A DNA stretch of 29,908 nucleotides from Escherichia coli (lineage in GTDB: Bacteria > Pseudomonadota > Gammaproteobacteria > Enterobacterales > Enterobacteriaceae). The notes below the pieces were generated by a model that was not told where the DNA came from, did no database searches, and saw only the letters and a list, made by a program, of their open reading frames with translations. The translations under genes and the position numbers were made by a program. Positions 21,061 through 29,378 of the stretch are shown one piece after another. Within the stretch, counting starts at the first letter, position 1. Each line of letters begins with the position of its first letter. The stretch lies in NCBI RefSeq assembly GCF_003334315.1, contig NZ_QOWR01000056.1. One strand, written 5' to 3'.

Positions 21061-22383
21061 TTACAACGACTGATGTCGCGTCTCATGGGTCAGCAGCAGG
21101 GCGATTAACGTCAAGCCAGCCATCGCCGCCAGATATAACCCCACCGCACCTAGCCCGTAGTTAGTCTGCAACCAGGCTGCGATATATGGCGCAACGGAAG
21201 CCCCGAGAATCGACGCTACGTTGTAAGAGAACGATGCTCCGGTGTAACGCACTTCTGTTGGAAACAGCTCTGGTAACAGCGCACCCATTGGCCCGAAGGT
21301 CAGACCCATCAGACTTAACCCCAGCAGCAGGAAGGCAAAAACCAGAATCGGGTTGCCAGAACCGAGCAGTGGGTTAAAGGCGAACAGCGCGAACAGGATG
21401 ATCAGCGTGGTGATGATTACCATGCTTTTACGGCGACCAAAGGCATCAGCCAGTAATCCAGCGACTGGCACCATCACGCCAAAACCAATAACTGCCATCA
21501 TCAACATCCACAACACTTCGTTACGCGGCAGGCCAAGCCCAACTGGCGCGGCGGCGGTACTAAAGGTCATAGAGTAGACCGTCATGATGTAAAACAGCGT
21601 ATAGGTTGCCAGCATAATGAACGTACCCAGTACGGTTACGCGAACATGTTTGGTCAGCAGCGTACCCAGCGGGATCTTCACCTGTTTTTTCGCTTTAGCG
21701 ACTTTCTCAAACACCGGCGACTCATGCAGCGACACGCGAACATACAGGCCGATAATGACCAGCACCGCCGAGAAGATAAATGGCACACGCCAGCCCCAGC
21801 TCATAAACTGCTCGTCGGTCAGTAGCCAGGAAAGCAGCAAGAAAGTGCCATTGGCAAAGAAGAAGCCAATCGGTGCGCCCAGCTGCGGAAAGGAGCCATA
21901 CAGTGCACGTTTGCGCGGTGGGGCGTTTTCAGTCGCCAGCAGCGCCGCGCCGCCCCATTCACCGCCTAAGCCCAGACCCTGACCAAATCGAGCCAGCGCC
22001 AGCAGCAGCGGGGCGAAAATACCAATCGTGGCATAGCCCGGCAGCAGACCAATCACCACGGTCGAAATCCCCATCGTTAGCAACGAGGCGACCAGCGTCG
22101 CTTTACGCCCAACGCGATCGCCAAAATGACCAAAAACGGCAGAGCCAATGGGGCGCGCGACGAAGGCGATGGCGAAGGTGGCGAGCGACTGTAGCGTTGC
22201 TGCCGTAGGATCGCCCTGCGGGAAGAAGATATGCGGAAACACAATAACGGCCGCAGTGGCGTAAATGTAAAAGTCGAAGAACTCAATGGCTGTGCCAATG
22301 AGAGAGGCGACAAGGACTTTATTACGCGAGTTGATCGGCGTGTATTCTTGCTCGTGGTCGAGTGTTGTGGCTGTTGCTTGCAT
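21061..22383 (-). CDS. yhjE: MFS-family transporter YhjE, 440 aa
   Basis: ORF 21061..22383 on the minus strand; multi-pass hydrophobic protein with MFS-type GxxxDRxGRR-like motif (GHFGDRVGRK). Confidence 0.9.
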   Translation of the reverse strand: MQATATTLDHEQEYTPINSRNKVLVASLIGTAIEFFDFYIYATAAVIVFPHIFFPQGDPTAATLQSLATFAIAFVARPIGSAVFGHFGDRVGRKATLVASLLTMGISTVVIGLLPGYATIGIFAPLLLALARFGQGLGLGGEWGGAALLATENAPPRKRALYGSFPQLGAPIGFFFANGTFLLLSWLLTDEQFMSWGWRVPFIFSAVLVIIGLYVRVSLHESPVFEKVAKAKKQVKIPLGTLLTKHVRVTVLGTFIMLATYTLFYIMTVYSMTFSTAAAPVGLGLPRNEVLWMLMMAVIGFGVMVPVAGLLADAFGRRKSMVIITTLIILFALFAFNPLLGSGNPILVFAFLLLGLSLMGLTFGPMGALLPELFPTEVRYTGASFSYNVASILGASVAPYIAAWLQTNYGLGAVGLYLAAMAGLTLIALLLTHETRHQSL

Positions 22384-22695
22384 AATCTTTTCTTATTTTT
22401 TGGCTAACGAATAGCCATATTACGCACAGCAAAAGTGATATTTCAATGTGTAACAAATCGCGGAAATGGTCAAAAATCAGGCAAAAAGGGGATAATGTTT
22501 AGGCCAGTGATTTTTCTTCTATGAAATGCTTCACATAATTTTATAAATAGTGGATAAAACTGGTTTCAGGTTAAATAAAAGTTACCAACTGGATTTATAT
22601 GCTGGGGTTATGAGTTGGAATGAAATTGTTTGCTCCCAAATAGATGGCTGAAGAGGCTCTGGGGACGAGTTTCAAGAGGTTATGTGCGCATTATA

Positions 22696-22792
22696 GCCGG
22701 ATGCGATGCTGGCGCATCTTATCCGGCCTACGGGGAGCCAGGCCGAATAAAATCGTATGCCGGATAAGGCGTTTACGCCGCATCCGGCCTAT
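22696..22792. repeat. REP pair (BIME-like) between yhjD and yhjE
   Basis: gccggatgcgatgctggcgcatcttatccggcctac at 22696..22731 and inverted atgccggataaggcgtttacgccgcatccggcctat at 22757..22792. Confidence 0.6.
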
Positions 22793-23855: not shown

Positions 23856-24755
23856 TCAGTCCAGGTACTCTTTCATTACGCCAGCCAGCCACTGCATAAA
23901 CAGGTTTACACGCCGGGAAAGCTCCCGACGCTGCGGATAAACCAGCGAAAGGGAGAGCGGCTCGGCACGGTAGCCAGGTAATACTTCAATAAGCCGCCCG
24001 GCACGCAGGGCTTCGCGCACGGCAATGCGCGGGATCTGAATAATCCCCAGACCGGCAAGACCGGCGGTGAGATAGTTTTCGCTACTGTTTACCGTCAACA
24101 TGCCGCCAGACTTAAACCACTGGACGCCATTAACGCTGGCAACCTCAAAACCTAACGGATGTACACCCAGGTGCGGTGTATAACGCACTATTGCGTGTGA
24201 AGTCAGATCATCGGGGCTTTGCGGATAACCAAAGCGCGTCAGATAGTGCGGACTGGCACAGTTGACCATGGTCAGTTTGCCGAGGGGACGGGCGATAACG
24301 CCATCTTCCGGTAACGCGCCAGTGCGTATCACGCAATCAAAACCATCATGAAGAATATCTACCGGACGGTCATGGCTACTCAGTTCCAGCTCAATTCCCG
24401 GATGCAGATAGAGAAATTCCGACAGGCGCGGCAGTAACAGGCTTTTCGCGATTCCTGGCGGGATGTCGATGCGTAATTTACCGCTGATACTGGTGGCATC
24501 CTGTTGAAACAGACCGTCCAGTTCGCTGAGATTACTCAACACATCTTTTGCTCGTTGATAATAGGTCATGCCTTCTGGCGTGAGTTTGACCCGTCGCGTG
24601 GTGCGCTGGAGAAGCTGGGTGCCAAGTTGATGTTCCAGTGCCTGTATCTGGCGCGAAACACTTCCCTTTGGCAAAGCAAAGAAATCCGCTGCGCGGGAAA
24701 AACTTTCCAGCTCCGCGACTTTGATGAACAACTGCATTGCGTGAATTTTATCCAT
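23856..24755 (-). CDS. yhjC: LysR-type transcriptional regulator YhjC (about 299 aa)
   Basis: ATG at 24753..24755 (MDKIHAMQLFIKVAELESFSRAADFFALPKGSVSRQIQALE..., N-terminal HTH); the track ORF extends 24 codons further upstream to 24827 and neither start has a clear Shine-Dalgarno. Confidence 0.8.
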   Translation of the reverse strand: MDKIHAMQLFIKVAELESFSRAADFFALPKGSVSRQIQALEHQLGTQLLQRTTRRVKLTPEGMTYYQRAKDVLSNLSELDGLFQQDATSISGKLRIDIPPGIAKSLLLPRLSEFLYLHPGIELELSSHDRPVDILHDGFDCVIRTGALPEDGVIARPLGKLTMVNCASPHYLTRFGYPQSPDDLTSHAIVRYTPHLGVHPLGFEVASVNGVQWFKSGGMLTVNSSENYLTAGLAGLGIIQIPRIAVREALRAGRLIEVLPGYRAEPLSLSLVYPQRRELSRRVNLFMQWLAGVMKEYLD

Positions 24756-25274
24756 TTCTTTGACCGATTGTTGTTCACAGCGAAACAGTAACGCGCATAT
24801 CGCATTGTTTATTGTTTTTTCTAACATCTAATGCCGGGTTTCACAATGTTGTCATGCCGAATGTGGCGATTTCTCAGCAGGAAAAGGGCGGAATAGCTTT
24901 CTGAGAAAGGTGAATCCCCTTAAACAGAGCGTATTTTTCAGCGATTCCCTTTAAAGTGAACAGAGGACGTGTTGGCTATTTGTGCTTATTTTTGTCTCCT
25001 TGCCGTTTGTTATTTTGGCTTGTGGTCGCGGAATTTCATTTTTAATTGCATGCGTACTAACCAACAATATAAGGAAATCCTCAAAATTGTTTTAAATAGT
25101 GCCCTCGACATGTAATTTCAGGCGTTTAGCTGTAACTATTTATATCGGTAACTATTTTCTACACGTCATCTCTGTAGAATGGCCACCGCCAAATGGCGAA
25201 TTCTTATTTTTTCTCGCGGGTAATACCCTTCCACTACTTAAGTCTTTTTAACGTATTCAGGTGGAGATTCAGTT

Positions 25275-25877
25275 ATGCAAATAGTCATGTTTGACAGGCA
25301 GTCAATATTTATTCATGGAATGAAAATCAGTTTACAGCAGCGTATTCCAGGAGTGAGTATTCAGGGGGCCAGTCAGGCAGACGAGTTATGGCAAAAGCTG
25401 GAAAGTTACCCTGAAGCCTTAGTTATGCTCGATGGCGATCAGGATGGTGAGTTTTGCTACTGGTTGCTGCAAAAAACCGTGGTGCAATTTCCTGAGGTTA
25501 AGGTGTTAATTACGGCGACGGATTGCAATAAACGGTGGTTACAGGAAGTTATCCATTTTAATGTGCTGGCCATTGTGCCTCGTGATTCAACCGTCGAGAC
25601 ATTTGCGTTGGCGGTAAATAGTGCGGCGATGGGGATGATGTTTCTGCCTGGAGACTGGCGGACGACGCCGGAAAAGGACATTAAAGATCTCAAATCGTTA
25701 AGCGCCCGCCAGCGGGAGATTTTAACCATGTTAGCGGCGGGCGAATCAAATAAGGAGATCGGCAGAGCGCTGAATATCAGTACCGGAACGGTAAAAGCGC
25801 ATCTGGAATCCCTGTATCGCCGTCTGGAAGTGAAAAATCGCACCCAGGCGGCAATGATGTTAAATATCTCCTCCTGA
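25275..25877 (+). CDS. yhjB: LuxR/FixJ-family response-regulator-like transcription factor YhjB, 200 aa
   Basis: ORF 25275..25877; C-terminal LuxR-type HTH (LSARQREILTMLAAGESNKEIGRALNISTGTVKAHLESLYRRLEV). Confidence 0.9.
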   Translation: MQIVMFDRQSIFIHGMKISLQQRIPGVSIQGASQADELWQKLESYPEALVMLDGDQDGEFCYWLLQKTVVQFPEVKVLITATDCNKRWLQEVIHFNVLAIVPRDSTVETFALAVNSAAMGMMFLPGDWRTTPEKDIKDLKSLSARQREILTMLAAGESNKEIGRALNISTGTVKAHLESLYRRLEVKNRTQAAMMLNISS

Positions 25878-25927: not shown

Positions 25928-27607
<1,680 letters not shown>

Positions 27608-27859
27608 TTATCGGCTTTTCTTTAAGGGTAGTCATTCGCTCCGCCTGGTGGGCGACAAAGCGTGCGGTGGATCACGTTTATTAACCTGTCAAAAAATATA
27701 ACGCACTAATATCAATGGAATTTATAAAAATACCGATTTGGTGTTGTTTTTCATTTTCAGAACATTCAATCCTGCTCTCGCCGCAATCATGATATGCCAT
27801 TCCTGATCTGGGTAATAGGCACAGGCTATCTTATTGATAGTTTATATTCATGTAATTGA

Positions 27860-27873
27860 TTGATTCCTATCAA
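27860..27873 (+). promoter_or_regulatory. FNR-type binding site upstream of yhjA
   Basis: ttgat-tcct-atcaa is a perfect match to the FNR consensus TTGAT-N4-ATCAA, about 107 bp upstream of the yhjA ATG. Confidence 0.6.
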
Positions 27874-27980
27874 AAAGCGTATCTCCCTGTTTTTTATGAT
27901 GGCTTTGTCTCGCAGAGACGTTTGCAGCATTCTGGAAAATTTTCTGGGTCACAATAACTCACCACCGTGAGGGAAGAATA

Positions 27981-29378
27981 ATGAAAATGGTCTCACGTAT
28001 TACCGCGATCGGCCTGGCTGGCGTCGCGATTTGCTATTTAGGGTTATCTGGTTATGTGTGGTACCACGATAATAAACGCAGTAAACAGGCCGATGTTCAG
28101 GCATCTGCTGTCAGTGAAAATAATAAGGTTTTAGGCTTTCTCCGCGAAAAAGGATGCGACTATTGCCACACGCCTTCGGCAGAATTACCCGCCTATTATT
28201 ATATTCCTGGCGCGAAACAGTTGATGGATTACGACATTAAGCTTGGATATAAATCTTTTAACCTTGAGGCCGTGCGTGCGGCACTGCTGGCTGATAAACC
28301 CGTTTCGCAAAGCGATTTGAATAAGATTGAATGGGTGATGCAGTATGAAACTATGCCACCAACGCGTTATACCGCGCTACACTGGGCGGGTAAGGTGAGT
28401 GATGAAGAGCGGGCGGAAATACTGGCCTGGATTGCAAAACAGCGCGCGGAATATTACGCCAGCAATGATACTGCTCCGGAACATCGCAATGAACCGGTGC
28501 AGCCCATCCCGCAAAAACTGCCTACCGATGCGCAAAAAGTGGCGTTGGGTTTTGCGCTGTATCACGATCCCCGTTTATCGGCTGATAGCACCATTTCATG
28601 CGCTCATTGCCATGCGTTGAATGCGGGGGGCGTCGATGGCAGAAAAACATCGATTGGTGTTGGTGGCGCAGTTGGGCCGATTAACGCGCCGACGGTATTT
28701 AACTCAGTATTTAACGTTGAGCAGTTCTGGGATGGTCGTGCGGCAACATTGCAGGATCAGGCTGGTGGACCGCCGTTGAACCCGATTGAAATGGCGTCGA
28801 AATCCTGGGACGAAATTATTGCTAAGCTGGAAAAAGATCCGCAGCTTAAAACGCAGTTCCTCGAAGTCTATCCGCAAGGTTTCAGTGGCGAAAATATTAC
28901 TGATGCCATTGCTGAATTTGAGAAAACATTAATTACGCCGGATTCCCCATTTGATAAATGGTTGCGCGGAGATGAAAATGCGCTGACGGCGCAACAGAAA
29001 AAAGGCTATCAATTATTTAAAGATAATAAATGTGCAACTTGTCATGGTGGTATTATTCTCGGCGGACGTTCCTTTGAACCGTTGGGGCTGAAAAAAGACT
29101 TTAACTTTGGGGAAATTACGGCGGCGGATATTGGTCGTATGAATGTGACTAAAGAAGAGCGTGATAAATTGCGTCAGAAAGTACCCGGTTTACGTAACGT
29201 TGCTTTAACGGCACCGTACTTCCATCGCGGTGACGTGCCGACGCTGGACGGGGCGGTGAAACTGATGCTGCGCTATCAGGTAGGCAAAGAGCTGCCGCAG
29301 GAGGATGTGGATGATATCGTAGCTTTCCTGCACAGTCTGAACGGGGTGTACACGCCGTATATGCAGGATAAACAATAA
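27981..29378 (+). CDS. yhjA: Tri-haem cytochrome c peroxidase YhjA (Ccp), 465 aa
   Basis: ORF 27981..29378 with GAGGGAAG Shine-Dalgarno; N-terminal membrane anchor; three CxxCH haem motifs (CDYCH, CAHCH, CATCH). Confidence 0.9.
   Translation: MKMVSRITAIGLAGVAICYLGLSGYVWYHDNKRSKQADVQASAVSENNKVLGFLREKGCDYCHTPSAELPAYYYIPGAKQLMDYDIKLGYKSFNLEAVRAALLADKPVSQSDLNKIEWVMQYETMPPTRYTALHWAGKVSDEERAEILAWIAKQRAEYYASNDTAPEHRNEPVQPIPQKLPTDAQKVALGFALYHDPRLSADSTISCAHCHALNAGGVDGRKTSIGVGGAVGPINAPTVFNSVFNVEQFWDGRAATLQDQAGGPPLNPIEMASKSWDEIIAKLEKDPQLKTQFLEVYPQGFSGENITDAIAEFEKTLITPDSPFDKWLRGDENALTAQQKKGYQLFKDNKCATCHGGIILGGRSFEPLGLKKDFNFGEITAADIGRMNVTKEERDKLRQKVPGLRNVALTAPYFHRGDVPTLDGAVKLMLRYQVGKELPQEDVDDIVAFLHSLNGVYTPYMQDKQ

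Follow-up and report, generated by a model that had tools for sequence, protein, structure and literature searches.

The DNA analysed here, hereafter the window, is a stretch of 29,908 nucleotides from Escherichia coli (contig NZ_QOWR01000056.1) and is the reverse complement of the E. coli K-12 chromosome near 3.67 Mb; a window position equals 3697169 minus the NC_000913.3 coordinate. We focused on the 519-bp spacer between yhjC, also named rcdB, and yhjB, which corresponds to MG1655 NC_000913.3 3671895-3672413. The original prediction described this spacer as lying at 24756-25274 and carrying no annotated feature, and both statements proved exact when compared with RefSeq: nothing is annotated within it in the RefSeq record of MG1655, nor in a second K-12 record. 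The two genes and the three parts into which we divide the spacer are as follows.

23856-24755, minus strand: rcdB (yhjC) coding sequence, whose start codon ends at 24755
24756-24855 (about 100 bp), no strand: block A, the yhjC-proximal part, with blastn and nhmmer homology to all genera (alignment A5)
24856-25055 (about 200 bp), no strand: centre, AT-rich and non-conserved, without a homologue outside Escherichia
25056-25274 (about 215 bp), plus strand: block B, the yhjB upstream region, homologous in all genera that have yhjB
25275-25877, plus strand: yhjB, with its ATG at 25275

With yhjC on the minus and yhjB on the plus strand, the genes form a divergent pair across a shared spacer. The LysR-type identity of yhjC is evident from the Pfam domains HTH_1 and LysR_substrate, which match its orthologues. 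The spacer was found in 5424 of 5426 complete E. coli genomes and is thus a core feature of the species. Its G+C content is 39.5%, compared to 52.3% for the whole window, and runs of at least four A/T occur at 2.1 per 100 bp as opposed to 1.0 in the window, which bears out the AT tracts that had been pointed out in it. Divergent spacers in E. coli typically measure 200-300 bp; the description of this one as unusually long was fair, yet its length is not extreme. According to the original start of yhjC at 24827 (323 amino acids), the gap would have been 447 bp, which is also the length implied by the Affymetrix probe-set name IG3669525_3669971.

In order to obtain information on the parts of the spacer that are under selection, we compared the locus with those of six other Escherichia lineages, E. 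fergusonii, six Citrobacter species, three Salmonella lineages, Intestinirhabdus alba, Kluyvera ascorbata, and Scandinavium manionii. Outside Escherichia, homology was detected only at spacer positions ~5-100 and ~300-519 (blastn, nhmmer profile). Four-fold degenerate sites of yhjC and yhjB diverge by 0.24-0.46 from those of the other Escherichia lineages, compared to 0.08-0.13 for block A, 0.02-0.18 for block B, and 0.05-0.07 for a core within block B (25174-25232). The divergence of the centre (0.40-0.64) equals or exceeds the four-fold-site rate. The same picture is seen within E. coli: the centre is just 90-95% identical in 1266 genomes, while the core is single-copy and at least 99% identical in 5045 of 5414 genomes. 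Taken together, divergence between lineages and identity within the species indicate that purifying selection acts on the two ends of the spacer but not on its middle; a sequence-specific function of the centre was not detected. One strain carries an IS1 element inside the spacer, whose insertion point falls in or near the centre by arithmetic, and strains exist that lack block A and the centre. We rejected a foreign or repeat origin of the centre, which is present in a single copy per genome and whose "plasmid" matches are all chromosome-sized records. The spacer measures 504-519 bp in six Escherichia lineages, 629-630 bp in Salmonella, and 898 bp in I. alba.

Closer inspection of block B revealed the following features.

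25070-25083, no strand: palindrome-like TAAGGAAATCCTCA, with the cross-genus consensus TAAGGAATTCCTTA (alignments A3 and A6)
25111-25116 and 25130-25136, plus strand: motifs TGTAAT and CTGTAAC, respectively, columns invariant in alignment A3
25127-25141 and 25143-25157, plus strand: the two copies of an Escherichia-specific direct repeat
25174-25232, plus strand: nearly invariant core of 59 bp, conserved as far as Kluyvera
25175-25180, plus strand: predicted yhjB -10 element TAGAAT, with a poor -35 element; the start site would be at ~25187
25187-25198: core element CGCCAAATGGCG
25198-25203: EcoRI site in the core
25201-25210: invariant core element TTCTTATTTT
25218-25228: palindrome GGGTAATACCC in the core
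25228-25234: anti-Shine-Dalgarno-like CTTCCAC, listed with the core
25260-25277, plus strand: yhjB Shine-Dalgarno sequence GGTGGAGA and ATG, conserved in alignments A3 and A6

The palindrome at 25070-25083 is a candidate operator for a dimeric helix-turn-helix regulator. An RcsB box at this position was ruled out by hand comparison: only 9 of 14 positions match the RcsAB-box consensus, and the half-site spacing is different. The predicted yhjB -10 element reads TAAAAT in Salmonella, Kluyvera, and some Citrobacter, and its context GTA.AATGGC is invariant in the 17 taxa of alignment A3; the sequence of Kluyvera, which was added in alignment A6, is GTAAAATGAC. The predicted promoter scores below the threshold of our consensus scan, and it is probably activator-dependent. 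Neither a sigma54 promoter nor a second sigma70 promoter using TAATAC within the core fitted the required spacing upon hand inspection.

Experimental data on transcription towards yhjB come from run-off experiments, in which yhjB-sense transcripts were detected in vitro on the spacer probe set with both holoenzymes (EsigmaS/Esigma70 ratio, 1.58; Maciag et al., PMC3141248). The template had been digested with EcoRI, only partially according to the authors (PMC3141248). Given the EcoRI site at 25198-25203, a signal from a cut template hints at a yhjB-sense promoter upstream of that site, and in vitro there may be one upstream of the promoter predicted here. Among the entries listed in the Cappable-seq and Kim 2012 tables, we found none for these coordinates or genes, which is weak evidence. 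In Salmonella, yhjB is induced by indole. The SoxS marbox of Salmonella (GCACATTTTGTTAAA), ~320 bp upstream of yhjB, belongs to a portion of the spacer that was lost in E. coli and is irrelevant there; a supplement on MarA and SoxS in Salmonella does not mention yhjB.

The small palindrome that had been noticed at about 25187 is CGCCAAATGGCG, located exactly at 25187-25198. With one mismatch allowed, 0.4 matches to it are expected in the window and 2 were found, so by itself it is not beyond chance; it gains its meaning from conservation across genera. Conservation of the core as a whole, including the part downstream of the predicted start site, exceeds what a weak promoter needs. The invariant stretch after the -10 element might be read in either of two ways, namely as operators overlapping the start site or as leader RNA.

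The second of these readings holds that 25183-25274 acts as RNA, i.e. as a cis-regulatory yhjB leader that controls translation or stability of the mRNA. Such control could be exerted by an anti-Shine-Dalgarno helix (CUUCCAC:GGUGGAG), by the hairpin GGGUAAUACCC, or by a single-stranded U-rich site for Hfq, a small RNA or ribosome standby. The core does lie downstream of the predicted -10 element and is conserved beyond the level of the yhjB coding sequence. In addition, UUCC is placed opposite GGAG of the Shine-Dalgarno sequence both by RNAalifold and in the single-sequence fold, and one compensatory pair is seen in Kluyvera, where GGG/CCC has become GAG/CUC. However, the folding energy of the putative leader is no better than that of shuffled sequences (z = -1.26), RNAalifold reports zero compensatory pairs in 17 sequences, and covariation in a structure that we specified ourselves, consisting of two small hairpins and the anti-Shine-Dalgarno helix, is not above that of shuffles, 151-177 of 500 of which reach it. 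Moreover, pairing in the first hairpin is disrupted in Salmonella, I. alba, and Kluyvera, the leader has no Rfam match, and transcription of the core is itself not certain. We consider a regulatory RNA leader unlikely, while noting that it concerns the role of the core alone and would be compatible with the main explanation given below.

Block A presumably holds the promoter, the 5' UTR, and a LysR-type operator of yhjC. Two features are of relevance here.

24818-24846, minus strand: predicted yhjC promoter, with the -35 element TTGTGA (24846-24841), a 17-bp spacer, and the -10 element TAGAAA (24823-24818)
24839-24856, plus strand: Pho box TTTCACAATGTTGTCATG, a weak PhoB site that overlaps the predicted yhjC -35 element

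The predicted promoter, which would place the yhjC start site near 24811, scores below the consensus-scan threshold, and its hexamer positions are conserved as TTG.GA and TAGAAA (alignment A5). The only promoter-like site that the consensus scan did report in the spacer lies on the minus strand at 25095-25066, with 1.6 such sites expected by chance. In a control region of this kind, a T-N11-A dyad bound by the regulator would be expected close to the regulator gene.

The Pho box is bound by PhoB in vivo according to two independent published studies. A weak PhoB ChIP-seq peak was reported at MG1655 3672318 (~24851 in the window) with the site TTTCACAATGTTGTCATG (Fitzgerald et al., PMC10294691), and the same site was identified by ChIP-chip at -91.5 from the yhjC start (Yang et al., PMC3465305). 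Deletion of phoB left the RNA-seq counts of yhjB/yhjC unchanged (252/397 in the wild type compared to 218/408 in the mutant; PMC10294691), the gel shift was of low affinity, and the effect was small, with contradictory results from array and reporter (PMC3465305). The PhoB site is probably inert. Binding of further proteins has also been reported. In ChIP-chip, a region occupied by RNA polymerase and sigma70 (3669865-3670515 in v2 coordinates) extends across the whole spacer (Cho et al., PMC3923258). In the part of the ChIP-exo data considered here, weak peaks convert to 24820-24884, among them a peak at 24820-24836, and one of these peaks is marked "bound by RNAP" (Gao et al., PMC8464067). 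The region is furthermore flagged as H-NS-bound in PMC10294691 (citing Kahramanoglou 2011), and a silencing effect of H-NS on the spacer is likewise taken from citations. The G+C content given above lies well below average, a feature of H-NS-bound AT-rich regions. Overall, these occupancy data and the purifying selection at both ends support one of the two readings that had been offered for the spacer, that of nucleoid-protein-bound promoters for two divergent regulator genes.

Comparison with sister genera offers an explanation for the length of the spacer. Four Citrobacter species, among them C. amalonaticus and C. sedlakii, carry a gene for a short-chain dehydrogenase (SDR) of 252 amino acids between yhjC and yhjB. 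It is divergent from yhjC across ~120 bp and lies ~350 bp upstream of yhjB. SDR orthologues with 79-84% identity are present in C. freundii, Kluyvera, Pseudocitrobacter, and Scandinavium. K. ascorbata, S. manionii, and C. freundii all have the SDR gene beside yhjC, in divergent orientation, inside a yhjE-(yhjD)-yhjC neighbourhood; in S. manionii, treF is also found downstream of the SDR locus, and in Scandinavium the SDR slot is occupied and yhjB is absent. In C. rodentium, the SDR gene is a pseudogene with an internal deletion and clear similarity (tblastn E 1e-23 to 1e-37). E. coli block A corresponds in alignment to the ~120-bp stretch that separates yhjC from the SDR gene in Citrobacter and Kluyvera, and block B to the final ~200 bp before yhjB. 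Salmonella retains the entire spacer from the SDR gene to yhjB, with homology that reaches approximately to the stop codon of the SDR gene (nhmmer profile positions 867/909-1235), and E. coli retains just profile positions 1026-1230.

The most economical reading of this synteny is that divergent yhjC and SDR genes followed by yhjB came first, and that Escherichia, Salmonella, and I. alba have since lost the SDR gene. Thus, the spacer of E. coli is probably long because loss of the SDR gene joined two control regions. No SDR remnant with detectable similarity was found by tblastn and nhmmer in E. coli, Salmonella or I. alba; for the E. coli centre, this held even when tblastn was run with word size 2 and nhmmer with its filters off. 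The proposed loss in Escherichia is consequently argued from synteny and outgroups rather than from a relic in the centre, and the direction of the event in this genus in particular is what the comparison suggests. The centre could also have another origin, or be kept for H-NS bridging.

The latter idea can be extended to the whole spacer. Its length itself may have been selected, with the AT-rich centre maintained as a platform on which H-NS nucleates or bridges, or to insulate the two promoters from each other, and the SDR gene would then be a later insertion in Citrobacter/Kluyvera. This would agree with the similar lengths in the six Escherichia lineages and the long spacers of Salmonella and I. 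alba, with the reported H-NS binding, and with the lack of an SDR relic in E. coli. In contrast, three further genera, likely outgroups among them, have the SDR gene at this syntenic position, the C. rodentium pseudogene represents an intermediate state, and the homology in Salmonella starts at the SDR 3' end. The sequence of the centre is, in addition, unconstrained, and strains with IS1 in the spacer, or without block A and the centre, exist. On balance, we regard selection for length as improbable, somewhat more so than the leader RNA.

The other reading that had been offered for the spacer, a small RNA, did not hold up. A trans-acting small RNA encoded in the spacer, or one derived from the yhjB 5' UTR, could be invoked to explain the length of the spacer and the in vitro transcription in the yhjB sense, and the hairpin CGCCAAAUGGCG is followed a few bases on by a U-rich run. 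Yet the stem of this hairpin has just 4 pairs and fails the terminator scan, and the hairpin is not kept across genera. The consensus scan found no intrinsic-terminator-like site in the spacer. No match to Rfam was obtained for the whole window at gathering thresholds, and the spacer yielded only noise at E values up to 10. In the Term-seq tables, no 3' end falls in the spacer; the neighbouring 3' ends are at 3671519 on one side and, depending on the list, at 3682061 or 3696237 on the other, and the list of Rho-dependent ends jumps from 3671289 to 3674577 (Adams et al., PMC7815308), so that these tables are empty between 3671519 and 3674577. Given also the unconstrained centre, which evolves at or above the neutral rate, the lack of covariation and the empty MG1655 annotation, neither a discrete 3' end or terminator nor a conserved structure or known family is seen, and a small RNA appears highly improbable.

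Equally improbable is a small protein or regulatory upstream ORF starting from the ATG at 25193 (33 amino acids in K-12, MANSYFFSRVIPF...), which in several lineages would be an N-terminal extension of YhjB: its N-terminal peptide MANSYF..RVIPF is similar in many taxa, it shares the reading frame of yhjB in E. albertii, E. fergusonii, three other Escherichia lineages, and C. amalonaticus, and it ends at a TAATG stop/start overlap in Salmonella, but 3 of 17 taxa have AAG or AGG instead of the ATG, the frame and end vary (frameshifted in K-12, fused in others, stopped in Salmonella), no Shine-Dalgarno sequence lies upstream, the conserved stretch lacks third-position variation and so points to constraint at the nucleotide rather than the coding level, and the annotated yhjB start has a strong conserved Shine-Dalgarno sequence and yields a protein that starts at the first strand of the receiver domain. 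A further ORF, with a GTG at 25099, is not conserved outside Escherichia. No ORF of the spacer shows a start, frame, and stop conserved across relatives together with a ribosome-binding site, in agreement with the original view that it contains no convincing ORF.

The spacer can be compared to several known systems. It is a member of a familiar class, i.e. long, AT-rich, H-NS-bound divergent control regions, with a LysR-type gene at one end. The csgDEFG/csgBAC spacer is an example of a long, AT-rich, H-NS-bound, multi-factor divergent spacer of E. coli, and multi-factor control of the csgD promoter has been described (PMC4797297). The spacer studied here resembles it in its length, low G+C content and reported H-NS binding, in the predicted back-to-back weak promoters of regulator genes, and in the several factors that appear in genome-wide assays. 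However, few factors are documented here, effects of PhoB are small or absent, and the centre is not conserved, indicating that it carries no specific operators. With respect to LysR-type divergent regions, rcdB/yhjC faces a divergent SDR gene across ~120 bp in Citrobacter, Kluyvera, and Scandinavium, which is the classical arrangement, and block A is homologous to that region. In E. coli, by contrast, this partner is missing, and the nearest gene on that side, 519 bp away, encodes another regulator. Similarity to gene-loss scars lies in the position of the centre, which is exactly where sister genera have a gene that has become a pseudogene in C. rodentium; unlike in such scars, no residual SDR similarity is present in E. 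coli, and a scar is suggested by position and synteny. Finally, the small RNA GadY from the same chromosomal neighbourhood likewise sits in a spacer between regulator genes. Its 3' end is mapped in the Term-seq tables (PMC7815308), in contrast to the spacer studied here, which has no such end, no terminator and no Rfam match.

Overall, our results suggest, with a probability of roughly three in four, that the spacer is a composite divergent regulatory region in three parts and not a gene. Block A would be the old control region between yhjC and the SDR gene, now serving rcdB/yhjC alone. It would contain a weak sigma70 promoter for yhjC, whose -35 element is overlapped by a low-affinity Pho box, and presumably a LysR-type autoregulatory site. 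The centre would be AT-rich filler free of constraint, in the position that Citrobacter, Kluyvera, and Scandinavium use for the SDR gene; this gene was most likely lost in the Escherichia lineage and also in Salmonella and Intestinirhabdus. Together with its flanks, this low-G+C filler may form the H-NS binding tract that holds both regulator genes low; H-NS over the tract probably keeps yhjB and yhjC at the low level that is reflected in RNA-seq counts in the low hundreds. Block B would comprise the promoter, operators, and 5' UTR of yhjB, starting with a weak promoter that probably depends on an activator, continuing with an initial transcribed region that hardly varies, and ending with the Shine-Dalgarno sequence.

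The occupancy of the spacer by H-NS, RNA polymerase, and PhoB has already been published. To our knowledge, the explanation by an SDR slot and the invariant core have not been described before, and both are modest points. Two separate proposals go further. The 59-bp core may be a yhjB-specific cis-regulatory element, acting as an RNA leader or through operators that overlap the start site and are bound by YhjB or a different helix-turn-helix regulator. Independently of this, a relic SDR promoter under RcdB control in block A may, following loss of the SDR gene, drive transcription across the spacer and into yhjB. We put forward this pair of proposals tentatively and consider it doubtful at present.

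These results bear on the further study of both regulators. The spacer can be struck off the list of candidate loci for small RNAs or small proteins, and the near-invariant core provides a defined target for work on the orphan response regulator YhjB. Moreover, the SDR of Citrobacter and Kluyvera is suggested as the ancestral target of RcdB/YhjC, which could help to assign the ligand and function of this regulator. If the capture of an SDR promoter by yhjB were true, the orphan regulators RcdB and YhjB would be wired into one circuit.

The reading frame of yhjC (rcdB) is open upstream as far as an ATG at 24827 (window 24756-24827), from which a protein of 323 aa would be produced. The MG1655 YhjC protein record now stands at version NP_417978.2, and the 447-bp gap implied by the longer start fits the name of an old Affymetrix probe set. 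The shorter start, which gives 299 aa, is supported by orthologues and by where the helix-turn-helix domain lies.

In E. coli strain HCP30S3_I2, an IS1A element lies within the yhjC-yhjB spacer (L020:657-1952) and extends its length to 1296 bp; converting the coordinates puts the insertion at about window position 25040, within or close to the centre, which is not conserved. E. fergusonii lacks yhjC entirely (L012:1924-2500), and its gene order is yhjD, a called ORF of 57 aa, and yhjB. In Escherichia sp. MOD1-EC7003 (L003:2548-3000), yhjC is reduced to residues 211-265; block A, on the yhjC side of the spacer, and the centre are missing, while block B, on the yhjB side, is intact. Under the name Limosilactobacillus vaginalis DSM 5837 there is a contig of 241 bp (L011:1-241) whose translation is 100% identical to residues 76-155 of E. 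coli YhjB; this is almost certainly assembly contamination.

In published Term-seq tables (Adams et al., PMC7815308), one 3' end, at MG1655 position 3671519 on the plus strand (window ~25650, minus strand), is antisense to yhjB, and another, at 3671289 (window ~25880), is associated with treF. Together, these ends suggest that transcription of the convergent treF gene reads through into yhjB on its antisense strand. The Rho-dependent list of the same study contains an "orphan" 3' end at MG1655 3674577, plus strand (window ~22592), which falls in the yhjD-yhjE spacer. This spacer (window 22300-22700) is another long AT-rich gap, with a G+C content as low as 0.33, and the treF-ccp spacer (window 27600-28000; G+C 0.34-0.40) is likewise long and AT-rich.

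Salmonella, Citrobacter, Kluyvera, and Scandinavium carry additional genes between yhjB, or the short-chain dehydrogenase (SDR) gene, and treF (L014, L016, L017, L018, L019, L021, L022, L023), namely a phage-lysozyme-like gene, a GNAT acetyltransferase gene, and a gene for a HEPN_STY4199 protein of 527-530 aa. They are absent from E. coli.

The SDR gene itself (adh_short, 252 aa) is divergent from yhjC and about 120 bp away from it in Citrobacter, Kluyvera, and Scandinavium.

Coordinates of the SDR gene in the collected loci
L017:1384-2142, SDR gene
L018:1375-2133, SDR gene
L019:1399-2157, SDR gene
L008:1860-2618, SDR gene
L021:3001-3759, SDR gene
L022:3001-3759, SDR gene
L023:3001-3759, SDR gene

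E. coli and Salmonella are without this gene. A decayed copy, now a pseudogene, lies inside the yhjC-yhjB spacer of Citrobacter rodentium (L015:1668-2146), where tblastn recovered two pieces covering aa 1-110 and aa 149-190 (E down to 1e-37). The LysR-type regulator RcdB/YhjC is likely to have had the divergent 252-aa SDR gene as its ancestral target.
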